Source: Escherichia phage BEK12A. Taken from it: a DNA stretch of 52,716 bases. Positions 28,914 through 50,631 of this stretch are shown here, in pieces. Location: the sequence record MN158210.1. One strand, written 5' to 3'. Numbering within the stretch: the stretch's first letter is position 1; each line of letters begins with the position of its first letter. The notes beneath the pieces are model-generated. The model made no database searches, had not been told where the DNA came from, and saw only the letters and a program-made list of their open reading frames with translations. The position numbers and the translations under genes were made by a program.

Positions 28914-28965
28914 TAGCATTTTTTGTTAAAACAGTTTATTGTAATGAGTCTATTATATACTCCAA
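28914..28965 (+). promoter_or_regulatory. conserved 20-bp box plus -10-like TATTAT upstream of helicase operon
   Basis: ATAGCATTTTTTGTTAAAAC, 18 bp, TATTAT; divergent from HTH gene. Confidence 0.55.
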
Positions 28966-28988
28966 ATGGCATTTTTTAAAGGTTTAAG

Positions 28989-30986
28989 ATGATTCCAAAT
29001 ATCGAAAAACAAATATCGGCGTTAGGCGAGGCAGTAATAAAAAGCATCCAAGAGCGATTCACGGTTGGCAATATAGTGCCTTATCCTTATCAGTGCGTTG
29101 CGTATGCCGAGATCGCAAAGCGCATGAAAAACTATGAGCATCCTTTCTTTGTTAAGGCTTCTGTGTCGGCTGGTAAAACATTGATGTTTGCGATGGTTGC
29201 GGCGCAATGCCGCAAGATGGGATTGAAAATGATGGTCCTTGCTCGCCAGGCTGAAATTGTTGATCAGGATTCAGAAGAGATCAGCAATCTTGGCGTGCCA
29301 AACTCAATCTATTGCGCCGGACTGAAAACAAAAAGCGCATACTTTCCGATCGTAGTCGGTTCTGAGGGCACTGTAGTAAACGGATTGTTTAAGTCGTTAG
29401 GTGATTATGTTCCGCACGTTATCGGTATTGATGAATGTCACCAGGTGGATTGGGAGGATCTCGCTGATGCGATAGAAAATAATGAATCTTACCAGCAGAT
29501 GACCACTAAGAAGGATTTGCCTGTACTGATTGGAGAAGAACAGCAATTTGATTCCAATGGCGATCCAATGTTCGGAACAGGGCGCACACAGTACACCGTA
29601 ATAATCATGGAAATGATGCGCAGGTGTCGCGAGGCATACGGGCATGAATTGCGAATATTCGGTATGACTGGATCTGAGTTTCGCGGCGTGGTTCCAATAC
29701 TGGTTGAAGATAAGAACAAAAAGGGATTCTGGCGTGAGCAGGTGACTAACATAGACACAAACTACTTAATCAAATTTGGTTCGGTAGTGCCAACAAATTT
29801 CGGCGACGTAGGCGACCTGGGGTATGACCTTTCAGAGTTCGAAGCCAGTAGCGAGGATGGCGTTTCAGACTTTGACGCTAAAACATTGCGCAAGATGGAA
29901 GAAAAGATCCATCAAGACGCAACAATGACACAGAAAATCATGGCTAAAGTCCATGAGATATGCAAAGACAGGAACGGAGTTTTAGTTACATGCGCAGGGG
30001 AAAGGCACTGCAAGGAGGCCGCCGCCGCACTGCCGCCAGGCGTTGAATACAGGATCATAACTGGCAAGACTGGAGACAATCAGCGTAAAGAGTGGCTAAG
30101 GGAGGCATACGAGGGAAAAGTAAAATACATCTTCCAGGTACAGGCGCTTACCACTGGCGTTAACGTTCCGTTTTGGGATACTTCTGTAATACTGAGAAAG
30201 ATAGGATCTCTAACATTGCTTATCCAGCTTTTGGGGCGCGGTATGCGACTGCTTAAGCAATGGCACATTGAGCAGGGATTCAAGAAAAAAGACCATCTTG
30301 TATTGGATTTTGCCGGTACTATGGATGAGTTAGGGGATTTGTATTTCGATCCAATCCTTGAGCAAGCGCAATTCCAAAAGAGATTTACAAACGGGAAAGA
30401 GCCTAAGACTTGTCCGATATGTGGAACGCTAAACAGCTTTTACGCTCGCCGATGTATGCACGTAGACGATAACGGGAAGAGATGCGAGCATTTTTGGACT
30501 TACAGAATTTGCGAGGACCAGGTAGATCCGAGAACGAAAAAGATAATCAAGCGCGGTTGCGGAACAAAAAATGACGTAGTGGCGAGAGTATGCCGTTGTT
30601 GCGATATTTCTCTTGTCGATCCTAACGAGAAGTTAAGCGGCAAGCACTACACCAAAAACGATTGGTGCAACGTTAAATCTTTCCGCGTTGATATGACGAA
30701 AAACCAGAAAGGAATTGTTTTTTGCTATGAGCTTGAGGCCAACGGCGACACGTTCAAGGCATACGAAAGATTTTTCCCTGAGTCAGAAAGCAACATTTGC
30801 CGGACGATATGGAGAAAAATAGCATTGCAGCACATACCGGATCGCAAGATTGCTGGTATGGTGGCGAGCTATAGAAATGCGCGTAAAATAATGTCATACG
30901 CTCATCACATCATGCCTCCTGTACGCGTAACGCATCGCAAAAACGGCAAAGGTGAGGATAACATTGCAAAACGGGAGTTTGTTTAA
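28989..30986 (+). CDS. SF2 DNA helicase (DEAD/DEAH-box type)
   Basis: Walker A SVSAGKT, motif II GIDECHQ; C-terminal Cys-rich zinc-finger-like region. Confidence 0.8.
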   Translation: MIPNIEKQISALGEAVIKSIQERFTVGNIVPYPYQCVAYAEIAKRMKNYEHPFFVKASVSAGKTLMFAMVAAQCRKMGLKMMVLARQAEIVDQDSEEISNLGVPNSIYCAGLKTKSAYFPIVVGSEGTVVNGLFKSLGDYVPHVIGIDECHQVDWEDLADAIENNESYQQMTTKKDLPVLIGEEQQFDSNGDPMFGTGRTQYTVIIMEMMRRCREAYGHELRIFGMTGSEFRGVVPILVEDKNKKGFWREQVTNIDTNYLIKFGSVVPTNFGDVGDLGYDLSEFEASSEDGVSDFDAKTLRKMEEKIHQDATMTQKIMAKVHEICKDRNGVLVTCAGERHCKEAAAALPPGVEYRIITGKTGDNQRKEWLREAYEGKVKYIFQVQALTTGVNVPFWDTSVILRKIGSLTLLIQLLGRGMRLLKQWHIEQGFKKKDHLVLDFAGTMDELGDLYFDPILEQAQFQKRFTNGKEPKTCPICGTLNSFYARRCMHVDDNGKRCEHFWTYRICEDQVDPRTKKIIKRGCGTKNDVVARVCRCCDISLVDPNEKLSGKHYTKNDWCNVKSFRVDMTKNQKGIVFCYELEANGDTFKAYERFFPESESNICRTIWRKIALQHIPDRKIAGMVASYRNARKIMSYAHHIMPPVRVTHRKNGKGEDNIAKREFV

Positions 30987-31405
30987 TGGCTATAACTGAT
31001 AAAGGCGATTATCTTGAGTTTTACGAAAGGGATCCAACCGACACGAGAAGGGAAGTTAATCACCAGATAGATAGTTTTCAGTGGTTGACTTATGCTCATC
31101 CTTATTTGCTGGCGTGGCATACGGTAAACGAGAATGAGAAGTCTAAAGCAACGGCGATGATTGATCAGCAGTCCGGCTTGGTTAAGGGAGTAAGCGATTT
31201 CATCATCCTGATTGGTTTAAACGGAAAATACCCCTTTGCAGCGATTGAGATCAAACGAGTGAATAAATCAGGCAAGGGGAAAGCATCACCAGTCAGCGAT
31301 GAACAAAAGGCTTTTTTGCGTCGCGTTCGCAGCTTAGGAGGATTCGCTGCGGTAGCCTACGGATTCAATCAGTTTAAGTTGGCTATTGAATACATGCTTA
31401 AATAG
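30986..31405 (+). CDS. VRR-NUC domain nuclease
   Basis: GVSDFIILIG...AAIEIKR arrangement (D..E.K) typical of VRR-NUC. Confidence 0.6.
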   Translation: MAITDKGDYLEFYERDPTDTRREVNHQIDSFQWLTYAHPYLLAWHTVNENEKSKATAMIDQQSGLVKGVSDFIILIGLNGKYPFAAIEIKRVNKSGKGKASPVSDEQKAFLRRVRSLGGFAAVAYGFNQFKLAIEYMLK

Positions 31406-31446
31406 CACTTTTTGTTAAAACTGGCGCGATGGATTGCGCCATAATA
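31402..31446 (+). promoter_or_regulatory. conserved box - hairpin - ATAATA module
   Basis: ATAGCACTTTTTGTTAAAAC, hairpin GGCGCGATGGATTGCGCC, ATAATA; stop TAG of upstream gene inside box. Confidence 0.6.
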
Positions 31447-31474
31447 CAGAAAAACAAAACACGGGGTTACTAAA

Positions 31475-31909
31475 ATGAAACTTAAATCATCTTTACTTAT
31501 CGCAGCTTTGGCATTAACAGGTTGTGGATTTAAAAAGACAGTGCACACTGATTTTAATATCAACTCTTGCACAAACTTAACAATGAATGTTGTGATGCAT
31601 TCAGCATCAAAGGCATACCATGATTCATGGTATAACAAAAACAGAGACACGATCAAATATATCGCTTACAGTGAGTGCAAGTCATCAATCGAAAACAATT
31701 TAATAGAAAACATCGGCACGAAATATAATTTTGTACGCGAAAAGGAAAAGTACATCACCCCATCAAAGCCTAGTGATATTGATATTTCAAATGTTCTTTC
31801 GGAAGTTCCAGAGATAATAACCTATGCTCACGCTGTAGGTTCAAAGCTCGCAACTACATCAAAGGTTGAGACTATCGAGATCTCAAAGAAGGCAAACGAA
31901 GTTTTTTAA
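31475..31909 (+). CDS. lipoprotein of unknown function
   Basis: MKLKSSLLIAALALTGCGF signal peptide with lipobox. Confidence 0.55.
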   Translation: MKLKSSLLIAALALTGCGFKKTVHTDFNINSCTNLTMNVVMHSASKAYHDSWYNKNRDTIKYIAYSECKSSIENNLIENIGTKYNFVREKEKYITPSKPSDIDISNVLSEVPEIITYAHAVGSKLATTSKVETIEISKKANEVF

Positions 31910-31925
31910 TAGCGGAGAAATGAAA

Positions 31926-32651
31926 ATGGCTAAATATATTTTAGATAAAGACACCCATGACGCATTCGTTAGCTTTGAGCAGTTGGAGAGAGAAACGTTT
32001 ATAGGGAATGCCCTTGCAACTGGAGGCCATTACCAGGCAGTAAAGCCAAATCAATATTATAAGGTAAGCGGCAACCGATACGCTGGAAGCACCACGCCGG
32101 ACGTTGTGCGAGATATGTGGAGCACGCCTCAAGAGATCGTGGAGTGGATGGAATCAGAATTTGGTGAATACGATCTCGACGCGGCAGCAAGCCAGGAAAA
32201 CGCAGTTTGCGAGAAGTTCTATAGCAAGGAAACAAACTGCTTAAAGCGTTGGTGGGGTAGCAACAAGCACGTATGGCTTAACCCGCCGTACAGCAACCCA
32301 ACTCCATTTATCAAGAAAGCAATTGAGCAAATGGAGCACAACAACCAAATTGATGTTTTGTTGCCAGCCGACAACTCTACAGCATGGTTTTATGAGTCGC
32401 AGAAAAACGCGGCTGAAATCATCTGGATCACTGGCGAGGTTTACGAAGAGGGTGGAGTAGAATACTCCCGCACCGGAAGAATCGCCTTTGTGTCTGGATT
32501 GACTGGCGAGCCTGTGCAGGGCAACAACAAGGGGAGCGTGATTTTTGTCATGCGCAAACTTAAAGAAGGAGAGGAGCAGAAAACGCGATACGTTAAGATC
32601 AGCGATATTTGCCCTTCTGTAACCGAACGCCGCGCGCGCAAACGGAGCTAA
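31926..32651 (+). CDS. dam: DNA N6-adenine methyltransferase (Dam-like)
   Basis: catalytic NPPY motif in HVWLNPPYSNP; start at second ATG after RBS (first ATG at 31920 possible). Confidence 0.75.
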   Translation: MAKYILDKDTHDAFVSFEQLERETFIGNALATGGHYQAVKPNQYYKVSGNRYAGSTTPDVVRDMWSTPQEIVEWMESEFGEYDLDAAASQENAVCEKFYSKETNCLKRWWGSNKHVWLNPPYSNPTPFIKKAIEQMEHNNQIDVLLPADNSTAWFYESQKNAAEIIWITGEVYEEGGVEYSRTGRIAFVSGLTGEPVQGNNKGSVIFVMRKLKEGEEQKTRYVKISDICPSVTERRARKRS

Positions 32652-32655
32652 CACG

Positions 32656-32913
32656 ATGAAAAAAGAGAGAAGCGTTTATTTAAATGAAACTGGCGAATGG
32701 TTGTTATTTCGCGCTATGGTGTGCGATGCACTTGATAAAAATCCTAACGTGAAAAAGATGATTGATTGCGATCCGTGGGAATTTTCAAGCGCATTAGATA
32801 TGAGCTTTGAGGAGACAAGAAAACTCCCGCTTGAAAAATGGCACGAACAAATCAGAAATGACATGCAAGAGTTTGTCGATTCGTGGAATTTTCAGCACGG
32901 AATGATCCACTAA
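32656..32913 (+). CDS. hypothetical protein
   Basis: 85 aa ORF ending in TAA that abuts the conserved box. Confidence 0.45.
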   Translation: MKKERSVYLNETGEWLLFRAMVCDALDKNPNVKKMIDCDPWEFSSALDMSFEETRKLPLEKWHEQIRNDMQEFVDSWNFQHGMIH

Positions 32914-32957
32914 TAGCACTTTTTGTTAAAACGCCCGGCCTAGTGTCGGGCATAATT
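32914..32957 (+). promoter_or_regulatory. conserved box - hairpin - CATAAT module
   Basis: ATAGCACTTTTTGTTAAAAC, CGCCCGGCCTAGTGTCGGGC, ATAATT; inverted twin at 36135-36173. Confidence 0.6.
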
Positions 32958-32988
32958 ATTTCAACGAAGCAAACATGAGGAAATAAAA

Positions 32989-33168
32989 ATGGTGGTATTC
33001 GATAAACGCGCTTTTAATCTTGCTCAAGAAGTAGCAAAAGGTTCAGTGGATGGCGGTTCAAAGGAAGGATTCCAGTTTGATTGGGAGATCGCAATGTTTT
33101 TACTGAAAGTTGCATACGGTCACGCACCAATTGAACAAGCGGAGGCATATTATAAGCATGAAGGTTGA
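32989..33168 (+). CDS. small hypothetical protein (59 aa, not in ORF track)
   Basis: ATG preceded by GAGGAAAT; stop overlaps next start (ATGA). Confidence 0.3.
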   Translation: MVVFDKRAFNLAQEVAKGSVDGGSKEGFQFDWEIAMFLLKVAYGHAPIEQAEAYYKHEG

Positions 33169-33400
33169 GCAAGGAAGAGATGCGGTATGGAATCACGCTA
33201 AAGAATGCGGTATTGCCGACGATATAAAGAAGATCGCGCAATACTTTGATATTGCAGATGTGAGCATAATTAGCGGCGACAAGATGACTTTCCTCAAGGA
33301 AAGGCCGCGAAAAATGGTAAGAGTTCCAGCAGTTCCAACAAAAATTGATTTCAAAGAGGCAATGGCTAAAATCCGAGAGCCTCGCAAATATTATAAATGA
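33158..33400 (+). CDS. hypothetical protein
   Basis: ATG at codon 17 of the 33110 ORF; about 80 aa. Confidence 0.4.
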   Translation: MKVEQGRDAVWNHAKECGIADDIKKIAQYFDIADVSIISGDKMTFLKERPRKMVRVPAVPTKIDFKEAMAKIREPRKYYK

Positions 33401-33494
33401 GGATAGTTATCATGTGGCGCTTGTTTGTTCTACCGTTACCCGTTATCATCGCTGTTACAGTTATGTACCATATAGTAATGAGATAGGTAGCAGA

Positions 33495-34610
33495 ATGAAA
33501 AATGTAAAAATTACAGATGAGCAATTCAAGATCGAACGGGCGGCAGGTAAGACATATAAACAGATCGCTCAAGAGTACGGAATGAATGTGAGAAGCGTCG
33601 AGCGTCGCGCGGCGCGTCTTGCAAAGCAAGGACAGTTATCGACCATTGGAGCGCCTGGTTTTGGTGTTCATGGTGAGTCAGTAATGACCGACAAAGAAGG
33701 CAACATAATCCTCAAGTGGACCAAAACCAGCAAGGACAAAGAGCAATTAGAAGCATTGATGCGCGCAGCAATGGAGGCGTTTAGCGAGGAAGTGCCGCGA
33801 TTAGATCCAGTTCCATTGCAGGAGCGTGACTATAATGAAACGCTTTCATTGTATCCGATCTTTGACATGCACTTAGGCGCTATGGCCCATAAGCACGAAT
33901 GCGGCGAAAATTGGGATACTGCGACGGCGGAGCGCGTTATGAATAACTTTATCGACTATGCTTTGATGTGCGCACCTGACAGTGAAAAGGCTGTTATCCT
34001 GATTGGTGGCGACATGCTTCATAGCGATGGCCTGGAGGCTGTGACCCCTGCAAGCGGTCACGTACTTGATCAAGATAGCCGATATGCAAAATTGGTTTAC
34101 GTTGCAATACGTGCAATGCGCCGCGCAATTAATAAAATGCTGTTAAAGCATAAACATGTTGAGGTCCAGATCGTTGAGGGCAATCACGACCAATCAGGAA
34201 TGATTTGGCTACGCGCAGCAATGGCGGCAGCATATGAGAACGAGCCGCGCGTTTACGTTGATGTTTCTCCTCGCGTTGTTCACCACACGCAATACGGAAA
34301 AACTTTCCTTGCGTACCATCACGGGCACACAGTGCGCAAACCTGAGACTTTGCTAATGATGTGCGCGTCAGATTGGCGGGAGGACTTCGGAAACTCAAAA
34401 ACGATGTATGCGCACGTAGGGCACTGGCATCACCAGACCGTGACGGAAACGTCGCTTGGGATCGTGGAGGTACATAGCACCCTGGCGGCAAAAGACGCAT
34501 ACGCCGCGCGCGGTGGCTGGAGATCTCGACGCCGTGCAGCGGTTATCATTTACGACAAAGAGCATGGAGAAGTTGGGCGATTTGTTCACTATCCAGAAAT
34601 GATGAATTGA
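33495..34610 (+). CDS. metallophosphoesterase with N-terminal HTH-like domain
   Basis: calcineurin-like motifs DMHLG, GGDMLH, GNHD, HHGH, GHWHH; N-terminal YKQIAQEYGMNVRSVERR helix-turn-helix-like. Confidence 0.6.
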   Translation: MKNVKITDEQFKIERAAGKTYKQIAQEYGMNVRSVERRAARLAKQGQLSTIGAPGFGVHGESVMTDKEGNIILKWTKTSKDKEQLEALMRAAMEAFSEEVPRLDPVPLQERDYNETLSLYPIFDMHLGAMAHKHECGENWDTATAERVMNNFIDYALMCAPDSEKAVILIGGDMLHSDGLEAVTPASGHVLDQDSRYAKLVYVAIRAMRRAINKMLLKHKHVEVQIVEGNHDQSGMIWLRAAMAAAYENEPRVYVDVSPRVVHHTQYGKTFLAYHHGHTVRKPETLLMMCASDWREDFGNSKTMYAHVGHWHHQTVTETSLGIVEVHSTLAAKDAYAARGGWRSRRRAAVIIYDKEHGEVGRFVHYPEMMN

Positions 34611-34658
34611 TGAATTTTTATTTAAATCAATGACAAATTAAATCAAAAACTTGCAAAG

Positions 34659-34686
34659 GGGCGGCGTTTGTCGCCTCTTTTTTTTG
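34659..34686 (+). terminator. rho-independent terminator
   Basis: GGCGGCGTTTGTCGCC hairpin plus TCTTTTTTTTG. Confidence 0.55.
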
Positions 34687-34755
34687 TTTAATTTTTTACC
34701 ATGTGCGTTTATCATGCGGTCAATATATTGACTTTAATTAATATGGAGAATAAAA

Positions 34756-34971
34756 ATGAAAGATTTTATTAACGCAGCTACCGCCGGATCTGGCGGTTCA
34801 TCTATCGCAAGCGCCGCTACAGGGCAGTTAACCATTGCTATTGCCAGCTTTGTTTTAATGGCTGCATTCGGTGCATGGGGCGCTTACCTTCGCTGGCGTG
34901 ATAGTAAAAAATTCCACGAGGCGATCGAAAAAGGTGATATTCAAAAAGCTATTGAAATCAGGGGCAAGTAA
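34756..34971 (+). CDS. holin
   Basis: 71 aa, hydrophobic TM segment and charged C-terminus, immediately upstream of endolysin. Confidence 0.6.
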
Positions 34972-35462
34972 TGAGCATAAAGAACAAGGTAGCGGCTGCG
35001 GCCTTTGGCGTTGCGGTTGCCTTGACTTCTCCACTTCTTGAAGAGATCGAAGGGGTAAGATACAAGCCATACAAAGATATTGCGGGAGTATGGACGGTTT
35101 GCGCAGGAATCACCGGACCTGATGTTATCCTGGGGAAAACGTACACTAAAAAAGAGTGTGATGCTTTGTTGGCTAAGCATATCCAGGTTGCTAAAAAGGA
35201 AGTTGACAAGCAAGTTAAGGTTGACATTCCTGATAGTATGCGTGCAGCAATGTACTCATTCACTTACAATGCAGGTGTGGGAGCTTTCAGAAATTCAACA
35301 ATGCTGAAACTCATCAACCAGGGGAAATTAAACGAGGCTTGCGATCAGCTTTATCGTTGGACGTATTACCATAACCCCAAAACAGGAAAGCGCGAGAAGT
35401 CTAAAGGCTTACTTAACAGGCGCAAGGTCGAATACAAATATTGCACGATGGATCTGAAATGA
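34971..35462 (+). CDS. endolysin (lysozyme, glycoside hydrolase family 24-like)
   Basis: catalytic E in LEEIEG and T4-lysozyme-like [16 protein letters not shown] block; ATGA overlaps. Confidence 0.75.
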
Positions 35463-35854: not shown

Positions 35855-35870
35855 TGCCTCCTTTATTTTT
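35844..35870. terminator. terminator between convergent operons
   Basis: AGGAGGCTTAATGCCTCCT plus TTTATTTTT. Confidence 0.55.
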
Positions 35871-36093: not shown

Positions 36094-36129
36094 AATTTTA
36101 CCTTTTGGTTGTTTCGTTTCGATGAAACA

Positions 36130-36173
36130 AATATACCCGACACTAGGCCGGGCGTTTTAACAAAAAATGCTAT
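36130..36173 (-). promoter_or_regulatory. conserved box - hairpin - TATATT module (leftward)
   Basis: minus strand ATAGCATTTTTTGTTAAAAC, GCCCGGCCTAGTGTCGGG, TATATT, then CATCGAAACGAA box. Confidence 0.6.
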
Positions 36174-38263: not shown

Positions 38264-38294
38264 TCGTTAGCTTCTCCTTTGTGGGCCGTAAATT

Positions 38295-38335
38295 TTAACG
38301 GCCCAATACTACCCCGTTTTGTCAAAAAGTGCTAT
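38295..38335 (-). promoter_or_regulatory. conserved box (variant TTGACAAAAC) - hairpin module (leftward)
   Basis: minus strand ATAGCACTTTTTGACAAAAC, then 18 bp, then TAAAAT inside hairpin GGGCCGTTAAAATTTACGGCCC. Confidence 0.55.
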
Positions 38336-39252: not shown

Positions 39253-39283
39253 CGTTTATTTCTCCTTTCGTTTCGGTGAAGTG

Positions 39284-39327
39284 ATTATGCCAGGTTTTTA
39301 CACCTGGCTTTTAACAAAAAGTGCTAT
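39284..39327 (-). promoter_or_regulatory. conserved box - hairpin - CATAAT module (leftward)
   Basis: minus strand ATAGCACTTTTTGTTAAAAG, CCAGGTGTAAAAACCTGG, CATAAT, CACCGAAACGAA. Confidence 0.6.
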
Positions 39328-41734: not shown

Positions 41735-41764
41735 CTTTAAATCCTCGTTCGTTGTCGATGGGTG

Positions 41765-41809
41765 TAATATACCATTCAGGCGCACATCGTTTTTAACAAA
41801 AAGTGCTAT
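41765..41809 (-). promoter_or_regulatory. conserved box - TATATT - CATCGACAACGAA module (leftward)
   Basis: minus strand ATAGCACTTTTTGTTAAAAAC, then 17-18 bp, then TATATT. Confidence 0.6.
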
Positions 41810-42096: not shown

Positions 42097-42239
42097 AGTC
42101 AACAACTCCAAACTCGTTAACGATTTGCGCCTTGTAGAATCCGCCATTTTTCGCCAGGTTGTAACAAGCGGCTACGGTTTCAAATTCGCGCGCTTCCGGC
42201 TGGCTGTTTTCGTGTTCCCAGGTAATCAGAGTAACCATT
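42087..42239 (-). CDS. small hypothetical protein (about 50 aa, not in ORF track)
   Basis: MVTLITWEHENSQPEAREFE...; first ORF after the 42273-42316 module; coordinates approximate. Confidence 0.3.
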
Positions 42240-42272
42240 TTCAAATCCTCGCATTCGTTGTCGATGCGTGTA

Positions 42273-42316
42273 ATGTACAGGAATGCGAGGATTGAGTTTT
42301 AACAAAAAGTGCTATT
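42273..42316 (-). promoter_or_regulatory. conserved box - TACATT - CATCGACAACGAA module (leftward)
   Basis: minus strand ATAGCACTTTTTGTTAAAAC, then 18 bp, then TACATT; stop TAA of upstream gene abuts box. Confidence 0.6.
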
Positions 42317-42804: not shown

Positions 42805-42805
42805 T

Positions 42806-43541: not shown

Positions 43542-43575
43542 TGCTATCTCCTGAGCGGTTCGTTTCGATGTGTGT

Positions 43576-43619
43576 AATGTACCCGATCAGGTGGTCTGAG
43601 TTTTAACAAAAAGTGCTAT
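43576..43619 (-). promoter_or_regulatory. conserved box - TACATT - CATCGAAACGAA module heading the leftward early operon
   Basis: minus strand ATAGCACTTTTTGTTAAAAC, then 18 bp, then TACATT; no gene upstream, so it acts as operon leader. Confidence 0.6.
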
Positions 43620-43644
43620 TTGACGGTTAGCGCCAGGATTGTGA

Positions 43645-43745
43645 TCGAAATAATCAAAAGTAATCATTCGTAATCAAATCACGTCAAAATGATGATTGCC
43701 TTTGCAAATTTTATGAGAAAAGTAATCACGTTTAATCATTGGTTG
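43645..43745. repeat. phased TAATCA direct repeats (iteron-like)
   Basis: TAATCA at about 43651, 43661, 43671 (10-bp phasing) and again near 43723 and 43734. Confidence 0.5.
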
Positions 43746-43889
43746 CAGGGGAGATAGTGAAACCTTCCCCTCTTGCCTCACTTTTTTGCCTGGCTGTCAG
43801 TGGTTGTTATGTTCCGTTCCCTCCTGTTCTTTTGTTGACCTTCCGCAAAATACGATAACAAAAAATAACAAACAATACCTATATAATAC

Positions 43890-44030
43890 ATTGAAAAATA
43901 AGGATTATTTATTTATATGTATCTATATATTCTCTTTTGTTATCTTGGTTATTGTGGTATTTGGTGGGGGTATATAGTTTTTGTGTATCTGTATGTGTGT
44001 ATGGGTATGTAGGGGCATATATATCTATAT
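43890..44030. repeat. AT-rich noncoding repeat region B (homologous to 22255-22460)
   Basis: TATTTATTTATATGTATCTATAT..TTTTGTTATCTTGG..TTGTGG..TTTGGTG..GTATCTGTATGTG. Confidence 0.6.
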
Positions 44031-44158
44031 GGCGCTTTCCGCGAGAAAACTTCGATAACAGGCAATGATAACATTGATTTATAAGGAAAAATAACTCCTA
44101 TATTGTTATTGTGCCACCATATAAAATTGATAAAACACGCAGGAACAAGAAAAAACAG

Positions 44159-44187
44159 TTGACACATTAAATAGCATTATTGATAAT
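44159..44187 (+). promoter_or_regulatory. consensus sigma-70 promoter (TTGACA-17-GATAAT) for rightward early operon
   Basis: perfect -35, 17-bp spacer, good -10, about 30 nt upstream of 44216 start. Confidence 0.7.
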
Positions 44188-44215
44188 GCCCACACCTAAC
44201 AACCAGGAGGCAGAA

Positions 44216-44680
44216 ATGAGCGAGCAATCATTCACTGACACGCTGCGCCGTGCCGCTATTATGCTGGCTAATGGCGAGGAAGAGACGATCAAGATTCCTG
44301 ACGCGTATTTGCAGGTCCACATGTTCGGCAAGAAGTCGGCAAGCAATCCGGCGGCCTACATTCGCCAGATCATGAGTCGAGTGCCAGAAGTCGCCGAGCG
44401 GGGGCGCGTATCCGTTACCCGTGGCGTTTACGGGCCGGAAGATGAAAACTTCGGTAGCACTTTCTACGAGGTGCGCATTGTTGAAGGCCGTCGCAAGGTT
44501 TACAACAAAGAGGCACTGGAAAGGGCAGTACGCCAGGCTAAGCGCAAGGTTGCAGAGGCGATCATTGATATGTCACCAAACCTGGCAAACTATGCGCCGG
44601 AAGAGTACGAAACATTATCAAAGGCCGTCGCTGACTTTCACGCGATGATCAAAAAAACTTTCCTGGAGGATGAGCAATGA
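44216..44680 (+). CDS. hypothetical early protein
   Basis: ATG at codon 13 of the 44180 ORF with RBS AGGAGG; about 154 aa. Confidence 0.5.
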   Translation: MSEQSFTDTLRRAAIMLANGEEETIKIPDAYLQVHMFGKKSASNPAAYIRQIMSRVPEVAERGRVSVTRGVYGPEDENFGSTFYEVRIVEGRRKVYNKEALERAVRQAKRKVAEAIIDMSPNLANYAPEEYETLSKAVADFHAMIKKTFLEDEQ

Positions 44681-44949
44681 AAAAGGCATTAATCAGCGTT
44701 TTGGTGGCAATGGCATTCCTGACCGGATGTAAAGAGGATGGCGCGCATGTTGGCAATGTGCAGATGGCTAACCCTGGCGATAACTACAGCGTAAGGGAGC
44801 TATTCACCGTTGACGGTTGCACCGTTTACCGATTCTATGACGATCGCACTGTTTACTTCACCAACTGCAAGGGCACTACTAGCTGGGGAGTGTCGAAAAG
44901 CAATGGCAAAGGCACGAAGACAGAACATATGACCGTCGAGACAAAATAG
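44677..44949 (+). CDS. lipoprotein of unknown function
   Basis: MKKALISVLVAMAFLTGCKE lipobox signal; ATGA coupling. Confidence 0.5.
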   Translation: MKKALISVLVAMAFLTGCKEDGAHVGNVQMANPGDNYSVRELFTVDGCTVYRFYDDRTVYFTNCKGTTSWGVSKSNGKGTKTEHMTVETK

Positions 44950-44989
44950 CACTTTTTGTTAAAACTCGAAAACGATAACCAGACATAAT
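44946..44989 (+). promoter_or_regulatory. conserved box - CATAAT module
   Basis: ATAGCACTTTTTGTTAAAAC, 18 bp, CATAAT, then hairpin GGGCGGCACGGCGTCGCCC; stop TAG in box. Confidence 0.6.
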
Positions 44990-45043
44990 AAATCACATAG
45001 GGCGGCACGGCGTCGCCCACAAAACCAATCAGGAGAAAGCACC

Positions 45044-45940
45044 ATGTTAAAACTTGCTGACATTAAATTCCCGATCACCTTCGAATCTCGCGGCATTGGT
45101 CATTACATTTTTACTGATGAAAAAACATGCCATAGAGTTGATTTGCATAGCTACAAGCGTGCGCCATCAATCATGGAGATTGAACACTTCATTGATGCAC
45201 ATAACAAGCACTACAACGCCCTTAAAGACTATGGCTATGCAATGCCAGGCTACACATGTTTGCACTACAAGCCATATAAGGGCCAGGTTCTACCAGTGCG
45301 ACCGATGCAACCATTGCGACCGCAGGACGTAGCAAGCCAGACAACTTACAAGCGATTAGATGAAGTGATCAAGAAATCAGTGAAAGAAGCGACTAAGCTG
45401 ACGGTTGATAAAATCAAGTATCCGATCACGTTCCATACAGTAGGAAACAGTAAGGTAACTTTCACATCGCGCGAAGATGGCAAATACGAAAGCGGTAACG
45501 CGACTGGTTACAAGGTTGATTACTTTGTTGACTGCCACAATGATTACAATCCTGAAAACGAAAAAGGTATAGTTTACTACGTGGAAGACCTTGCAAAGCA
45601 CATTTTTTCGATTCCAGACTACTGGAAGATTAACAAGGTGGGCGACGCTATTCACAACCAGGTAGAGCAATCCCTAAACGACCGTTGCAAGACTTTACGC
45701 ATCGAAAAAGGCGAAGTGGTCACTATTGGGCGCATTGAGTCCATGCCGCTTGGGGCCAAACTCCTGGCTATCCAGGACGACGAGGGCAACTATCAAGATG
45801 TGGTAATGCCGATCGTTAAAATTGAAGTGCACGACGACAACATTTGTCTACTGTCACATTTTGGCGGGTACAAGAGCAAGCGGTTTACGGCTGAGCTAAA
45901 TATCAAGCGCGGAACGTTTGCTAAGTGGAAGTTTGACTGA
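45044..45940 (+). CDS. hypothetical protein with internal tandem duplication
   Basis: 298 aa; IKFPITFESRG...HFIDAHNKHYN and IKYPITFHTVG...YFVDCHNDYN repeat units. Confidence 0.5.
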   Translation: MLKLADIKFPITFESRGIGHYIFTDEKTCHRVDLHSYKRAPSIMEIEHFIDAHNKHYNALKDYGYAMPGYTCLHYKPYKGQVLPVRPMQPLRPQDVASQTTYKRLDEVIKKSVKEATKLTVDKIKYPITFHTVGNSKVTFTSREDGKYESGNATGYKVDYFVDCHNDYNPENEKGIVYYVEDLAKHIFSIPDYWKINKVGDAIHNQVEQSLNDRCKTLRIEKGEVVTIGRIESMPLGAKLLAIQDDEGNYQDVVMPIVKIEVHDDNICLLSHFGGYKSKRFTAELNIKRGTFAKWKFD

Positions 45941-45982
45941 TAGCACTTTTTGTTAAAACTCAAATGTGGGGCCAGATATAAT
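45940..45982 (+). promoter_or_regulatory. conserved box - hairpin - TATAAT module
   Basis: ATAGCACTTTTTGTTAAAAC, GGGCCAGATATAATGGCCC with TATAAT 17-18 bp after box; stop TGA abuts box. Confidence 0.6.
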
Positions 45983-46012
45983 GGCCCTACTTTCAACGAG
46001 AGGGGAAACGCG

Positions 46013-46240
46013 ATGGAAAGTTTAATCATCCAGAAAAAAATGAAGTGTGTCAGTGTAGCGCCAGGTTGCGGCTTTATGTTCACAGTGGGGCATATCTACT
46101 CCGCGCAGAAAATGAGAACATCAACCGGATCGTTTTACGTCAATAACAATCAAGGATTCCGTATGTTCCTGAACGGTCAAAACGGCAACGCAATTTGCGC
46201 TTACGCCGACCTTATCGCAACCTTTGAGGAAGTCAAATAA
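46013..46240 (+). CDS. hypothetical protein
   Basis: ATG at codon 22 of the 45950 ORF with RBS GAGAGGGG. Confidence 0.4.
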   Translation: MESLIIQKKMKCVSVAPGCGFMFTVGHIYSAQKMRTSTGSFYVNNNQGFRMFLNGQNGNAICAYADLIATFEEVK

Positions 46241-46599
46241 TGTTCAAGAGCTACAAAGACGTTGATTTTCGCGTAAGCCATATCATCGAACGCAACCAGT
46301 CAGTAGATCAGATTGGTCACAATGTGGCGATGAAAATCGTAGCGAAAAAGGACGAGCTAACCAAAAAGGCCGTCAAGGAATTTTACGGGATTGACGATCC
46401 CTACTTGGCTGTTTCCCGTGTAGCTCGCATATCAGACAATTGGGGACGCGAGCGATTCATTGATGGCGAAACTGGCGAGGCCATCATTGAATTTAATAAT
46501 CAGCAATCGCGCATTGCAAGCGGCGGCCTGGCTGATTATTGCGTCGCGATTATCAAAGCGAAGGTTAACAGCAAAATTGCTCACGCGTTTAAGGATTAA
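46240..46599 (+). CDS. hypothetical protein
   Basis: 119 aa ORF, coupled. Confidence 0.45.
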   Translation: MFKSYKDVDFRVSHIIERNQSVDQIGHNVAMKIVAKKDELTKKAVKEFYGIDDPYLAVSRVARISDNWGRERFIDGETGEAIIEFNNQQSRIASGGLADYCVAIIKAKVNSKIAHAFKD

Positions 46600-46601
46600 T
46601 C

Positions 46602-46811
46602 ATGGACCAGAACAAAACAGCAAAATATAAATTCACTGACGACTACGGAGACACTATCGACGTTTATCAGCGTGGGAATCAGATCTTTATAGATGGCACT
46701 TTCGAATATGGCCGGATGCCAGACTTTCGGGGAATACTTTCGGCAGAGAGCGCGCGCCGCATGGCGAACGTGTTAAATAAACTGGCGGCAAAGATTGAGG
46801 CGATGCAATGA
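46602..46811 (+). CDS. hypothetical protein
   Basis: 69 aa ORF. Confidence 0.4.
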   Translation: MDQNKTAKYKFTDDYGDTIDVYQRGNQIFIDGTFEYGRMPDFRGILSAESARRMANVLNKLAAKIEAMQ

Positions 46812-47602
46812 AAAAATACACTTTCGAACTGTGGGGCAAGAAGTACGAATTAATGACCAGTAAGCCGATTGTTATCGTTGACCTGGACGGCACACTATCG
46901 GACGGATCGCATCGTTTGCATTTGCTGCCAACTGAAAACTTGCACCTTACGGAATCGTGGCGCGAGTTTAACAGGGCCGCCGCCGGAGATTCACCGATTA
47001 AAAGCACTATCGCGGTTATTAACGGTTTATGGGTGTCGGGATTTGCCATCGTCATCTTGACCGGACGCAGCGACGAGGTTCGCTATGAAACCTGCAAATG
47101 GTTGAATGAGAACGGCGTGAAGTTTGACGAAATCATCATGCGCCGCCAGGATGACAACCGAAAGGATACGGTTATTAAAGAAGAAGCCTTGCGCGCTATT
47201 GGCCTGGGCAACATTGTTTGCGCCTTTGACGATTCGCCGAACGTGGTTAAGCACTTCCGCAGCTTGGGAATCACAACCTATCAGGTCACGGAATACGACA
47301 AGCCACACGCTCACATACAATCTCACGGCGTGGATGAATTGAAGCCAAAAATCGAATGCGAAGGCGAGCACTGTTTTAGTGTGGTTGATGGTAAATGTTT
47401 GCGTTGCGGCGTGGAATCAATCAAGATCACGAAGCGCGCCCGATTCGTTGGCAGCAAAGATAGCCTTGTCAATGCCAACTTTATAAAAGATAAGGTTTAT
47501 GATGTTTGGAGCTACAACGAAACGGCGTTTCTCGTGTGTGATGAGGCAGGAACGGCCTGGCAGTTTAAGCACGACGACGGCGATTTTGTTAATGCGGAGT
47601 AA
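46808..47602 (+). CDS. HAD-superfamily phosphatase with C-terminal Cys-rich domain (polynucleotide 3'-phosphatase / nucleotidase-like)
   Basis: motif I VIVDLDGTL (DxDGT), motif II-like VILTGR, distal DD; C-terminal CEGEHC...CLRCG zinc-ribbon-like. Confidence 0.55.
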   Translation: MKKYTFELWGKKYELMTSKPIVIVDLDGTLSDGSHRLHLLPTENLHLTESWREFNRAAAGDSPIKSTIAVINGLWVSGFAIVILTGRSDEVRYETCKWLNENGVKFDEIIMRRQDDNRKDTVIKEEALRAIGLGNIVCAFDDSPNVVKHFRSLGITTYQVTEYDKPHAHIQSHGVDELKPKIECEGEHCFSVVDGKCLRCGVESIKITKRARFVGSKDSLVNANFIKDKVYDVWSYNETAFLVCDEAGTAWQFKHDDGDFVNAE

Positions 47603-47608
47603 TTATAA

Positions 47609-47800
47609 ATGGCTGACTTTATGCATCAAATGATTGTTGTATTTAAGGGCAGTGAAGATGAAGAGGTTCGCGAATGCTTCACCATTGAGAAATCATACAG
47701 CGCATCTTTAACCAGTTTTGGCAACATATCTATGATTGATGATAATGGCGATCCGTGGATTTTTGAAGATGATACGGATTGCTTTGAGATTAAAGAATAG
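47609..47800 (+). CDS. hypothetical acidic protein
   Basis: 63 aa; stop TAG in box. Confidence 0.4.
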   Translation: MADFMHQMIVVFKGSEDEEVRECFTIEKSYSASLTSFGNISMIDDNGDPWIFEDDTDCFEIKE

Positions 47801-47840
47801 CACTTTTTGCAAAAACAGATTGTCGGGCTTGCGGTATAGT
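47797..47840 (+). promoter_or_regulatory. conserved box (variant GCAAAAAC) - hairpin - TATAGT module
   Basis: ATAGCACTTTTTGCAAAAAC, GGGCTTGCGGTATAGTAAGCCC, then CATCAACAAACGAGGA. Confidence 0.55.
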
Positions 47841-47868
47841 AAGCCCATCAACAAACGAGGATTAAATC

Positions 47869-48132
47869 ATGGCTAACAAGATCGAGTTTTTTAAAGCGGT
47901 AGACATTATTGATGGCGCTCCGAGCTTCTTTGCCATCCATTCTATTGACGGCAAGGATATTGGGTACAATGTTATCCGTCGAGATGGAATCTCAAAACTT
48001 AGTGACCTGGTAGGTCGAGTTGCGTCAGACGGTAAATGCTCATGCCCCGATTCGAAACGAGAGCCACGCCGCCGCGACATGGTAGAGCCTGTTCTGCTTT
48101 ACACCCTGGTAGTAGAAGGAGAAAATAAATGA
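47869..48132 (+). CDS. hypothetical protein
   Basis: 87 aa ORF with RBS CGAGGA. Confidence 0.4.
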   Translation: MANKIEFFKAVDIIDGAPSFFAIHSIDGKDIGYNVIRRDGISKLSDLVGRVASDGKCSCPDSKREPRRRDMVEPVLLYTLVVEGENK

Positions 48133-48370
48133 TTTGATTACTTGCTTTTTTGGTTGTTTTTCTTTACATTTCAGGCTTATTCACGTTCCGCGCGTTTGCG
48201 AAATATTCTGGCGCGACAGACAAGGACGATAAAATAGTTCTCGCTTTCTGGTTTGTTTGGGTGTGGTTAGTAATTTACGAGATCATCAGAGACAAACAGA
48301 AATTTGATTGGTGATTCTTGCTATGGCGCATTCATGCAGTGCGCCATGTTGAGAAAACCTAAAGGGGGAA

Positions 48371-48514
48371 ATGATGCGTAACTTTGAAAAAATCATTACC
48401 AAAAAGAAGCGTCGCGGGTACGATGAGCATGTGGAGTTTGTGAACAAACAGCGCAAGAAGCGCCATAGACGCGAAATGCTGCATAATATCAACTCACGCT
48501 ATGGAGAAAACTAA
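48371..48514 (+). CDS. small basic protein (47 aa, not in ORF track)
   Basis: ATG after RBS AAAGGGGGA; Lys/Arg-rich; stop abuts next start. Confidence 0.3.
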   Translation: MMRNFEKIITKKKRRGYDEHVEFVNKQRKKRHRREMLHNINSRYGEN

Positions 48515-48706
48515 ATGCAATTGCCACCATTTGACAAAAAAAGCGAAGAGATTGCCAAAACTGCATGTCACCTTCGAGAGCTTGCCGACATGATAGAGCG
48601 CGGTCAGGTTATGATTGTCAATATGACGATCAAAAGCGAGAATAGAAATTTCAAGGTTTTAAGCGAGACAACAGAAATTACCGTCTTGAAAGCAAGGGGA
48701 GAGTAA
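48515..48706 (+). CDS. hypothetical protein
   Basis: 63 aa ORF. Confidence 0.4.
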   Translation: MQLPPFDKKSEEIAKTACHLRELADMIERGQVMIVNMTIKSENRNFKVLSETTEITVLKARGE

Positions 48707-48708
48707 TC

Positions 48709-49299
48709 ATGAAACGAGACATTATCATCCTTAATGGGCCTCCAGGTTGCGGGAAGGACACTATTGCAGCTTACCTAACGGGCCATCGTTACCAAGCGGT
48801 TAAGGCATCATTCAAGCAACCTATGTTCGACATTGCTTTTTCTATGCTTGGCCCGACTCGATACGATGAATTTATGGACCTGTACAACGACCGAGAGCAA
48901 AAAGAAAAGCCTCAAGTTATCTTAGGCGGCAAGTCACCTCGACAATTCATGATCTGGATTAGCGAGGATGTAATGAAGCCAGTTTTTGGGGATCACTATT
49001 TCGGGCGTCGAATGGTTGAAGAGATTCACGAGATGTACCGAGATTTGGCGGTTGTGATCAGTGATGGCGGATTCCCCGAAGAAATCAAGCCGCTCGTTAA
49101 GGCGGGGCATGAGGTGCATATTTGCCGATTGCATCGCTACGGCTTCACGTTTGCTGGCGATTCGAGAGACTACATTGACCTGAGCGGTTATCACTATCGA
49201 ATCCATCACTATGATTTCCACTTGCAGGACGGTAAGCCGGAACTGGCTGTAAACGAGATCGTCAATGCTGTCAAATGGAAGCACACACAGATTAAATAG
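48709..49299 (+). CDS. P-loop kinase (nucleotide / polynucleotide kinase-like)
   Basis: Walker A ILNGPPGCGKDT at extreme N-terminus, typical of small NMP/polynucleotide kinases. Confidence 0.5.
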   Translation: MKRDIIILNGPPGCGKDTIAAYLTGHRYQAVKASFKQPMFDIAFSMLGPTRYDEFMDLYNDREQKEKPQVILGGKSPRQFMIWISEDVMKPVFGDHYFGRRMVEEIHEMYRDLAVVISDGGFPEEIKPLVKAGHEVHICRLHRYGFTFAGDSRDYIDLSGYHYRIHHYDFHLQDGKPELAVNEIVNAVKWKHTQIK

Positions 49300-49339
49300 C
49301 ACGAATTGCTAAACGCGGGGTTATCGGCCCCGCTATAAT
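49296..49339 (+). promoter_or_regulatory. variant conserved box - hairpin - TATAAT module
   Basis: ATAGCACGAATTGCTAAAC, GCGGGGTTATCGGCCCCGC, TATAAT; stop TAG in box. Confidence 0.45.
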
Positions 49340-49369
49340 GCTCACATCAACAAGCAAGAGGAAATCACA

Positions 49370-49750
49370 ATGGTTAACATTCGAAAAATCCGCGTCGGCA
49401 CTAAATTCTTAGTTACTTACGCAATTCCAGATAGCGGAATGAAGAAGGGCCAGATTGTTAAGGTTGATAGCAAAAGGTTCGGAATCCCTGGTATCAATGG
49501 CTATCTAATCAATAGAGATCTTGGATTCGACGGCTTCGCTATCCGTGCGCTTGAGGGTATTGTTGCCACTCTTAAGCGAATCACTAATCATCGCGGTTGT
49601 CCAATCAAGACGATTAAAGCGCCAACCAATTACGGCAAACTGGATAATCGTCGAATCCGCCGCCTGGCGCGTAACGCGTTAAAATTCCGTGGCGTAGGCG
49701 ATGATTTCTACTATGGTTACAAGAGGATTGCGCGCAATGCTGGGAAATAA
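49370..49750 (+). CDS. hypothetical basic protein
   Basis: 126 aa ORF. Confidence 0.45.
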   Translation: MVNIRKIRVGTKFLVTYAIPDSGMKKGQIVKVDSKRFGIPGINGYLINRDLGFDGFAIRALEGIVATLKRITNHRGCPIKTIKAPTNYGKLDNRRIRRLARNALKFRGVGDDFYYGYKRIARNAGK

Positions 49751-49849
49751 CAATAACGCAACGAATCCTAAGCCACCTTTTGATTTTCATTCCGCAATGA
49801 TTGCGGTATTATTAATGCTAATTTTTCTTTATAGCATGAGGGCGCTACT

Positions 49850-50098
49850 ATGGTTTTTAACGCATTGAAACGACTGTTTAAGCCGGAATACCGGATCGTA
49901 TTTTGCCGCGACTGTTCTACTTATCATGTGCAGCGACGCAGCTTAGGCGGCAATTGGCACTATGTTACAGACGACTTTTTCGGCATCATTGCCACTGAAT
50001 TTAAGTATTACAGTGATGCTTATATGTACGTCAAGAAGCGCCACCGCTTACGCAAGTGTCGTTTTTCCGTACTGATTCACGTTAATGATTGTTACTGA
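49850..50098 (+). CDS. hypothetical protein
   Basis: 82 aa ORF with RBS GAGGG. Confidence 0.4.
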   Translation: MVFNALKRLFKPEYRIVFCRDCSTYHVQRRSLGGNWHYVTDDFFGIIATEFKYYSDAYMYVKKRHRLRKCRFSVLIHVNDCY

Positions 50099-50105
50099 GG
50101 TGAAA

Positions 50106-50288
50106 ATGAAAACTGGTATTATTATTCTTTTCCTGATCCTTTTCGGCAGCCATTTAACCATTAACTATGAGGGCATTATGGCCTTTTGGGGCAACTTGAT
50201 GATTTTTGCCGCTGGTTCAATTACTGGCTACTCTGACGGGAAAAAGGACGGCGTTCGCAAGATGCTGATGGGACTTAAACAAAAATAA
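50106..50288 (+). CDS. small membrane protein
   Basis: ATG at codon 8 of the 50085 ORF; two hydrophobic segments. Confidence 0.4.
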   Translation: MKTGIIILFLILFGSHLTINYEGIMAFWGNLMIFAAGSITGYSDGKKDGVRKMLMGLKQK

Positions 50289-50299
50289 GGGGATCTGAA

Positions 50300-50590
50300 A
50301 TGGCAAACAAAACTTACCGCAAACTACTGGTTAACGCTTTTGAAAACATCGCGCAGTCTAACAAGTGGAACGACTCTAAACACTCGCCAGTCACAATGAA
50401 GCGCGTCGGATTCAAAAATGCTCGTTCATGGGCGCGAGCTTTCGCAGCTTGCTATATGCCGGATGGTGGGCTAGGAGCGATGAACGATTTTTTGATCAAC
50501 ATGATAGAGGAAGCGGCGCGAGAGGATCGACCGCTGACACAGCGAGATTTTGACGACTTCGCGCGCGATGAGCTTTACTATCTGAGCTAA
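50300..50590 (+). CDS. hypothetical protein
   Basis: 96 aa; stop TAA abuts box. Confidence 0.45.
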   Translation: MANKTYRKLLVNAFENIAQSNKWNDSKHSPVTMKRVGFKNARSWARAFAACYMPDGGLGAMNDFLINMIEEAAREDRPLTQRDFDDFARDELYYLS

Positions 50591-50631
50591 TAGCACTTTT
50601 TGTTAAAACTTCCGCAAGGGCATTTGATAAA
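50590..50631 (+). promoter_or_regulatory. conserved box - hairpin - GATAAA module
   Basis: ATAGCACTTTTTGTTAAAAC, AAGGGCATTTGATAAAGTGCCCTT, then GAAGCGAAACAGAGGA. Confidence 0.55.

Follow-up and report, generated by a model that had tools for sequence, protein, structure and literature searches.

Repeated boxes of Escherichia phage BEK12A as probable host marboxes of compact early promoter cassettes

A stretch of 52,716 nucleotides from Escherichia phage BEK12A (sequence record MN158210.1), a member of the Drexlerviridae (Tempevirinae, Warwickvirus), was analyzed over its whole length and is referred to below as the window. The window carries a repeated 20-bp box, ATAGCACTTTTTGTTAAAAC, which we consider fairly probable to be a near-consensus host marbox, each copy being the upstream half of an approximately 75-bp class II promoter cassette that would use an activator of the MarA/SoxS/Rob family. 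Judged from the sequence, the phage probably borrows host MarA/SoxS/Rob to activate the majority of its early genes. The box matches the marbox in sequence and in geometry, the cassettes have no -35 hexamer, and the phage has no AraC-like protein; from these observations we infer activator binding, the choice of activator, and the positions of the transcription start sites (TSS). According to the original prediction, the boxes mark a class of promoters specific to the phage, at which a phage factor would act in the manner of T4 MotA. This part could not be upheld because the box is a near-optimal host marbox in the class II position, and the activator is most likely a host protein of the MarA/SoxS/Rob family rather than a phage MotA-like factor.

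A search of both strands with at most three mismatches returned 16 copies of the box against 0.00 expected, and three weaker or degenerate copies could be added at 27351(+), 49296(+), and 3029(+), which bears out the predicted repeat. The range of 28914–50631 under which it had been reported was too narrow; copies do occur inside this range, but the element was also found outside it. Boxes share the strand of the genes around them. Copies on the plus strand (28913, 31402, 32913, 44946, 45940, 47797, 49296, and 50590) occupy 28.9–33 kb and 44.9–50.6 kb, and copies on the minus strand (22173, 36154, 38316, 39308, 41790, 42296, and 43600) occupy 36.1–43.6 kb and position 22173. Three copies, 7284(-), 11046(-), and 27351(+), are reversed with respect to the neighboring genes, as had been predicted. 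In the 15 copies co-oriented with a downstream gene, a TAnnnT or CAnnnT hexamer follows the box at 18 bp (13 copies) or 17 bp (two copies), in agreement with the near-constant spacing claimed earlier, and the start codon is located 73–99 nt from the box start. All 15 copies having a well-spaced -10 and a downstream gene are in forward orientation. Comparison of open reading frame (ORF) ends with box coordinates usually placed the stop codon of the upstream gene within or abutting the box, either as the TAG of aTAGcac or as a TAA/TGA ending on box base 1, in agreement with the predicted tight packing of genes and boxes.

The marbox of the Grainger laboratory, gcannwwntgnnaaa, is non-palindromic and lies in forward orientation over the -35 position of class II promoters. 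This consensus gave 17 matches in the window, where 1.73 were expected, and every one of them was a box. An older consensus, attributed to Martin et al. 1999, reportedly reads AYnGCACnnWnnRYYAAAYn; searched as AYnGCACnnWnnRYYAAAY with at most one mismatch, it gave 15 matches in the window (1.14 expected), 13 of which were boxes. A position weight matrix (PWM) was built from 73 Salmonella MarA/SoxS/Rob/RamA sites printed in one chromatin immunoprecipitation sequencing (ChIP-seq) study. The phage boxes scored 14.9–17.4 bits on this matrix, compared with a median of 11.2 and a maximum of 17.9 for the ChIP sites and 13.9 for micF, and they rank 2nd–16th among the 73 sites. For a random 15-mer, the probability of attaining the score of the commonest box is approximately 5e-7. 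Some phage box cores are the same as sites bound in vivo, for example GCACTTTTTGCAAAA, the core of the 47797 marbox, which is identical to a Salmonella RamA/SoxS ChIP site, and the 49296 marbox ATAGCACGAATTGCTAAACG has 0 mismatches to AYnGCACnnWnnRYYAAAY. The positions left unconstrained by the module search also follow the degeneracy of the marbox, being W at 9 and 10 and Y at 14.

The spacing of the cassette is that of the E. coli micF promoter. In the fetched micF promoter sequence, ACAGCACTGAATGTCAAAAC is followed by 18 nt, TAGAAT, 7 nt, and the TSS, and in the phage cassette ATAGCACTTTTTGTTAAAAC is followed by 18 nt and TAtagT. The two boxes are identical at 15 of 20 bases, including the terminal AAAAC. 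The micF soxbox, centered at -41 to -41.5, is the class II archetype, and its complexes have been solved with RamA, SoxS, and Rob on RNA polymerase. Across the genome, forward marboxes are concentrated at -41, and promoters of class II are without a -35 (Salmonella ChIP-seq study).

The anatomy of the cassette was assessed on 381 non-redundant modules collected from T1, Rtp, the window phage, and IMG/VR contigs, with box base 1 as position 1; module counts and percentages below refer to this set unless stated otherwise. Box positions 1–20 were nearly invariant save 8–10 and 14. Positions 8–10 read TTT in 169, GAA in 118, TAA in 34, and AAA in 14 modules, with W in 98% at each of positions 9 and 10, while position 14 was C in 54% and T in 38% (Y in 92%). 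Downstream of the spacer columns, T34 (59%) corresponds to T at -17, T36 was present in 46%, and G37 (77%) corresponds to G at -14. The full TG at -15/-14 was found in 42% of the modules, more than half being without it, and the full TGn in 3–4 of the 15 cassettes of the window genome; G at -14 lends the modules a partly extended -10 character. The hexamer at 39–44 showed T 68%, A 83%, T 69%, two free positions, and T 84%, TATAGT being its commonest form. It was followed by C50 (66%), A51 (76%), and TCGAAAC, giving the conserved leader C(-1)A(+1)TCGAAAC. TAnnnT began at position 39 in 231 of the 381 unique modules, with every other offset seen in at most 23; the 18-bp spacing was therefore held in these 231 although spacer columns 21–33 carried less than 0.25 bit each. 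A Shine-Dalgarno sequence together with a start codon was recognized in 325 modules, the median position being 77. If A51 is taken as +1, the box covers -50 to -31; a start placed one base later, the situation in micF, would make this -51 to -32.

A -35 hexamer at 16–18 bp from the -10 was not found, the mean number of matches to TTGACA being 0.9–2.4 of 6, and the predicted lack of a -35 is confirmed. TTGnTA within the box was rejected as a -35, as it sits 22 bp from the -10. The idea of promoters in which a box-bound protein replaces the missing -35 gained support from the fixed 18-bp phasing, the near-consensus -10, and the start codon approximately 77 nt on. The original prediction had overlooked G at -14 (77%), TG at -15/-14 (42%), the leader C(-1)A(+1)TCGAAAC, and the prior publication of the box.

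The predicted hairpin was also confirmed. Positions 19–58 fold at a mean minimum free energy (MFE) of -11.3 kcal/mol compared to -5.0 kcal/mol for shuffles, and an MFE of -8 kcal/mol or lower was reached by 71% of the modules versus 5% of coding controls. The paired positions are 21–35 and 43–50, that is, -30 to -1. The commonest register, 27–32 with 45–50, was found in 61 of 231 modules and leaves the -10 in the loop; its GC, AT, TA, and CG pairs were 3–5 standard deviations above column shuffles. In some modules the spacer contains a true terminator, the U-tract of which gives T-17 and TG-15/-14. Rfam and tRNA scans gave no matches. Since the stem ends at -1, the hairpin is absent from the cassette's own transcript, and its location upstream of the cassette's TSS leaves DNA and read-through transcripts as its only possible sites of action. 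By analogy with PeSL cassettes, its role is most likely that of an attenuator or insulator.

A homologue of MarA/SoxS/Rob could not be found in the window phage by tblastn (best E 0.96). A hidden Markov model built from three sequences, run over all 481 ORFs, reached only 8.7 bits at best, and no AraC-type domain was found in 10 early proteins using Pfam. With no AraC/MarA-like protein in the phage, a host activator is the likely partner. Two-hexamer sigma-70 promoters were not enriched in a scan of 28–48 kb (33 vs 40.4 expected), which leaves the cassettes as the main promoter candidates. Rob is already present in the cell and has a high affinity for DNA, and SoxS is described as a kind of co-sigma that acts by pre-recruitment. 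Our guess is that the pre-existing Rob serves as the activator in unstressed cells.

The proposed mechanism involves a cassette of approximately 75 bp that would be read by host sigma-70 RNA polymerase in the early/middle phase. The upstream stop codon would be followed by the 20-bp marbox, covering roughly -51 to -32, a spacer of 18 bp that is not conserved and mostly folds into a GC hairpin ending at -1, G/TG at -14/-15, TAtagT at -12 to -7, C(-1)A(+1), the leader AUCGAAACGAA, the Shine-Dalgarno sequence, and a start codon approximately 77 nt from the box start. The predicted 5' end is the A of ATCGAAAC, 6–8 nt past the hexamer. A monomer of the host activator (MarA, SoxS, or Rob; RamA in Klebsiella and Salmonella) would contact the box via GCAC and YAAA, substitute for -35 recognition, and recruit RNA polymerase via the alpha C-terminal domain (alpha-CTD) and sigma region 4, as in the micF complexes.

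Several points weigh against a host activator of this family. The box varies less than chromosomal marboxes do (A3 98%, T11 97%, and A19 72%, where the consensus has Y), which could mean a more specific reader other than MarA/SoxS/Rob, and the three reversed boxes conform to the rules of neither marbox class, I or II. In unstressed cells MarA and SoxS are scarce, and with Rob sequestered as well, the fast growth of T1-like phages in broth is not what would be expected. Rob is largely sequestered under standard growth without inducers (Salmonella ChIP-seq study), and activation by the family is often just 2–4 fold. In a Keio screen with the TLS-like phage LL5, only receptor and lipopolysaccharide genes together with secB and ppiB were recovered, and the paper makes no mention of rob, marA, or soxS. 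It follows from this screen that any dependence is redundant or partial, and that none of the activators is likely to be strictly required by itself. Redundancy of the three activators, or basal activity from the -10 and G-14/TG, which may be substantial, could mask an effect.

Another possible reader is the phage regulator encoded at 28425..28901 (T1 gp23 family), a Cro-type helix-turn-helix (HTH) protein and the sole annotated regulator of the window phage, for which the box would be the operator of a class II-like activator or an early shut-off repressor. The protein carries a Cro-like HTH, its homologues occur in 849 phage records of which those listed are all T1-like genomes of 44–52 kb, its gene lies directly next to a box, and the promoter of that gene overlaps the helicase cassette. 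The box also contains a partial dyad, TAGCA-N5-TGCTA, perfect in 54% of the modules; however, this dyad is intrinsic to the optimal marbox, the optimum of the ChIP PWM being GCACAAATTGCTAAA, and the commonest box form (TGTTA) breaks it. Cro-type HTH proteins are expected to bind a dyad and not an asymmetric 20-bp site, whereas the conservation of the box is asymmetric, covers 20 bp, and reaches into AAAAC. Moreover, Slopekvirus phages of approximately 175 kb keep the module, with no regulator homologue among the listed matches of that size, and a repressor would need no 1-bp-exact phasing to the -10. An operator of this regulator is thus an unlikely identity for the box, and the proposal that 28425..28901 is the box binder loses ground on account of its Cro-type HTH, the asymmetry of the box, and the Slopekvirus modules.

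Host RNA polymerase might instead act alone on a (partly) extended -10, the box serving as a UP-like or weak -35-like element with no activator. We give this only a small chance. G-14 in 77%, TG in 42%, T-17 in 59%, and near-consensus -10 hexamers are what such a promoter would show, the box contains a T-tract and an A-tract, and no activator was among the Keio screen hits. Binding of alpha-CTD in the minor groove would leave the invariant GCAC and TTG unexplained, the box is located at -51 to -32 rather than at the UP position of -59 to -38, TTGnTA is 22 bp from the -10, and the full TG is missing in more than half of the modules. An activator-free UP-like reading is among the ideas of German et al. 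2024 (PMC11447400), who also raised a stoperator. The latter belongs with a further set of readings in which the box is no transcription signal and acts as a recombination linker through which cassettes are shuffled, as a silencer of the stoperator type, or as a signal in the RNA of read-through transcripts. Cassettes do border small ORFan and HNH genes and include the stop codon of the gene upstream, the Slopekvirus copy arrived unaccompanied by its gene, and PeSL cassettes are known to recombine. Shuffling may nevertheless be a by-product of any repeated 75-bp cassette and leaves the marbox code and the -10 phasing unexplained; the window phage belongs to the family of TLS, which is described as virulent, and no repressor or immunity module was noticed in its annotation; and no Rfam family matches. 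These readings appear very improbable.

Other identities of the box were considered, and none fits it as a whole. Sigma-54 promoters have GG(-24)/GC(-12) at fixed spacing, TGGCAC-N5-TTGCW; the look-alike in the box has AG instead of GG and a spacing 2 bp short, and leaves the fixed -10 unexplained. UP elements are A/T-only, lie at -59 to -38, and are bound by alpha-CTD, and the box has the wrong position and invariant G4, C5, C7, and G13. The dyad TAGCA-N5-TGCTA fits only at its arms and belongs to the optimal marbox. An Lrp site, yAGhAwATTwTdCTr, is matched by the arms TAGCA/TGCTA but not by the center (C at 6; TTT/GAA variable), and the marbox fits the 20 bp better. IHF, Fis, CRP/FNR, ArcA, and lambda CII-type TTGC repeats were compared by eye, and none fits. 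The exact 20-mer occurs just three times in 100,044 bacterial species genomes (one genome per species), and one of these copies is on a 46.7-kb contig with full modules that is evidently phage DNA; a host element resembling repetitive extragenic palindromes, the case that would have undone the original prediction, is thereby ruled out.

Individual cassettes of the window could be resolved on both strands. On the plus strand, the cassette with the helicase gene downstream (28913..28988) has its marbox at 28913–28932 (ATAGCATTTTTTGTTAAAAC), the -10 TATTAT at 28951–28956, and the start codon at 28989. Its -10 overlaps that of a minus-strand TTTAAA-17-TATAAT promoter (28951–28980), which would drive the Cro-like regulator and primase and is overlapping and divergent with respect to the helicase cassette. 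The cassette at 31402..31474 contains the marbox 31402–31421, the spacer hairpin GGCGCg..GCGCC, the -10 CATAAT at 31440–31445, and the start codon at 31475. At 32913..32988, the marbox (32913–32932) is followed by the hairpin GCCCG..CGGGC, CATAAT at 32951–32956, and the start codon at 32989. A longer leader is present at 44946..45043 (marbox 44946–44965, -10 CATAAT 44984–44989, start codon 45044). The cassette at 45940..46012 (marbox 45940–45959, start codon 46013) has its -10 TATAAT at 45977–45982, 17 bp from the box, in the loop of GGGGCCAGA..TGGCCC. At 47797..47868 (marbox 47797–47816, start codon 47869) the -10 TATAGT at 47835–47840 is within the hairpin. The cassette at 49296..49369, of the GAA subtype, has its marbox at 49296–49315, the -10 TATAAT at 49334–49339, and the start codon at 49370, and that at 50590..50665 has its marbox at 50590–50609, TGaTAAAGT at 50625–50633 in a hairpin loop, and the start codon at 50666.

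Minus-strand cassettes begin with 22119..22192 (marbox 22173–22192, -10 TATAGT 22150–22155 at 17 bp, start codon 22116–22118) and 36094..36173 (marbox 36154–36173, -10 TATATT 36130–36135, start codon 36091–36093), the spacer hairpin of the latter being the same as in the 32913 cassette. At 38264..38335, upstream of a helicase-like gene of 526 amino acids, the marbox 38316–38335 is a TTGACA variant and the -10 TAAAAT (38292–38297) is in a hairpin loop. The cassette 39253..39327 has the marbox 39308–39327, the hairpin CCAGG..CCTGG, and the -10 CATAAT at 39284–39289, and it is followed by 41735..41809 (marbox 41790–41809, -10 TATATT 41766–41771) and 42239..42315 (marbox 42296–42315, -10 TACATT 42272–42277). 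In this last cassette a perfect 11-bp stem (42281–42291 with 42246–42256, -20.6 kcal/mol) joins the spacer to the next gene's Shine-Dalgarno sequence, and the ribosome site would be masked in read-through RNA and free only in transcripts from its own cassette. The first leftward cassette at the divergent gap is 43542..43619 (marbox 43600–43619, -10 TACATT 43576–43581).

Two AT-rich divergent non-coding gaps, 43620–44187 and 22190–22620, measure approximately 430–560 bp and contain many short repeats. TTGTTATC was not clearly enriched in these AT-rich gaps (6 vs 2.3 expected). The 43620–44187 gap holds the sole near-consensus sigma-70 promoter of the 28–48 kb scan, TTGACA-17-GATAAT at 44159–44187(+), which is possibly an immediate-early promoter or origin region.

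The reversed and degenerate copies differ in their state of preservation. In the late region, an antisense module on the minus strand (11022..11065) consists of the marbox 11046–11065 and the extended -10 TGaTAGATT at 11019–11027, kept at 18 bp, and is directed toward the major tail gene's bidirectional terminator; an antisense counterpart with TGaTA[ACG]GAT is conserved in T1 (18850-) and in several IMG/VR relatives. The reversed box ahead of the major capsid gene (7260..7303, minus strand; box 7284–7303) has a poor -10-like TATGCG, and its position is conserved at T1 15086- and TLS DR7. A degenerate reversed box without a -10 (27351..27370, plus strand; ATAGCACTTTTTGCTAATGA) is located between the primase terminator and the tail-fiber start, and its position is conserved at T1 34902+ and Rtp 33762+. 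Another degenerate box (3029..3048, plus strand; ATAGCACGAATCGACAAACC) comes after an HNH gene and before a terminator and has no properly spaced -10. The strong terminator GGCTGG..CCAGCC with T7 is placed between this box and the portal gene (3029–3090), and the box looks like a decayed cassette that came along with the homing endonuclease.

BLAST analysis with one module matched 1009 phage records, nearly all T1-like phages of Enterobacterales hosts belonging to Klebsiella, Escherichia, Shigella, Salmonella, Citrobacter, Enterobacter, Cronobacter, and Pantoea. Full T1-like modules were also seen on a 46.7-kb contig of a Nitratidesulfovibrio liaohensis assembly (NZ_VSMK01000220.1), which is probably a Drexlerviridae phage contig and not host DNA. 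Three phages labeled as Campylobacter phages, A13a, A127, and A123 (MG065679, MG065667, and MG065669), have modules 80–90% identical and a regulator 80% identical to that of the window phage, in which they resemble T1-like phages of E. coli, and their host label looks doubtful. A full module, consisting of the box, 18 bp, TATAGT, and the leader CATCGAAAC, was found at 10042–10105 of Klebsiella phage KP15, a T4-like Slopekvirus, where it is annotated as 'putative middle promoter; discovered using MEME'. It precedes KP15_13A, the homologues of which are found only in T4-like phages, and it is the one intact module in the first 50 kb of KP15. A second, degenerate module with a terminator inserted in its spacer lies 340 bp upstream. 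Transfer of a gene cassette from Drexlerviridae was rejected as the source of the KP15 copy, as the downstream gene is T4-like only, one intact module is present, and only the regulatory module is shared. The occurrence of the module ahead of a T4-family gene indicates that it works, or at least persists, without Drexlerviridae proteins.

A wider proposal, which we regard as doubtful, is that a virulent family with more than 1000 sequenced Drexlerviridae has outsourced its main promoter recognition to host stress activators, so that infection speed and yield would be tuned by the mar/sox/rob/ram status of the cell. If true, it would to our knowledge be the first virulent phage family with principal promoters depending on MarA/SoxS/Rob/RamA, and phage gene expression would be tied to the switch behind intrinsic multidrug resistance. 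Early expression would then respond to bile, to salicylate, to redox stress, or, in clinical strains with multidrug resistance, to marR/ramR mutations, with a bearing on phage-antibiotic synergy and on the success of T1-like phages in the gut. The near-optimal phage marboxes might also pull activator-polymerase complexes off host promoters. Several T1-like phages use TolC, a member of the mar/sox/rob regulon, which gives the matter relevance for phage therapy. The cassette further provides an annotation rule of about 15–20 promoters per Drexlerviridae genome and yields compact, portable, stress-responsive promoter cassettes.

The box itself is known from earlier work, in which German, DeGiulio, Ramsey, Kropinski, and Misra (2024; PMC11447400) described in phage TLS a 21-nt repeat, aaATAGCACnnnTTGnTAAAA, with 21 copies of which 18 are intergenic, oriented in the direction of transcription approximately 76 nt before start codons and divided into TTT/GAA/AAA subtypes, and noted similar repeats in T1, Rtp, and Rogue1. 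Just three sigma-70-like promoters and no polymerase or sigma gene were reported in TLS, and the authors proposed stoperators, enhancer sites, or UP elements, listing the function as an open question (PMC11447400). The consensus aaATAGCACnnnTTGnTAAAA, its intergenic location, and its distance of approximately 76 nt to start codons identify the TLS repeat as the same element as the window box. The link from the repeat to a -10 or to marboxes is not drawn in the TLS paper and was made in the present analysis. Literature searched for the box sequence, TSS, and marbox with T1/Drexlerviridae returned no report of a marbox reading or of Drexlerviridae TSS data, and the marbox reading is new as far as this literature goes. 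It makes the question on TLS/T1 repeat function left by German et al. 2024 directly testable.

PeSL cassettes of RB49/phi1 consist of a stop codon, an AT-rich stretch, a promoter, a stem-loop, a Shine-Dalgarno sequence, and ATG (Arbiol et al. 2010, PMC2839356). Their GGGG..CCCC stem-loop lies between -35 and -10 or over the -10 and attenuates upstream transcription, and the cassettes recombine (PMC2839356). Shared with the window cassettes are the order of elements including a stem-loop in or over the core promoter, the small ORFan neighbors, and the mobility between genomes; however, PeSL promoters have a consensus sigma-70 -35, and the window cassettes carry the marbox in its place. The T4 MotA/AsiA middle promoters share the TAnnnT -10, the lack of a -35, and a box farther upstream for an activator. 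In these promoters the MotA box, TGCTTtA, is centered at -30, 11–13 bp upstream of the -10, whereas the window box is centered near -41 and ends 18 bp before the -10, and its factor would be host-encoded. With class II MarA/SoxS/Rob/RamA promoters such as micF, the phage cassettes have in common an asymmetric 20-bp forward marbox over the -35 position with its center near -41.5, 18 bp to the -10, and no recognizable -35. Unlike micF-type promoters, they carry G/TG at -14/-15, a GC hairpin from -30 to -1, and a common leader. The phage boxes are also much nearer to the consensus than most chromosomal marboxes and, unlike the class II promoters of the host, they occur in a virulent phage at 15–20 copies per 50-kb genome.

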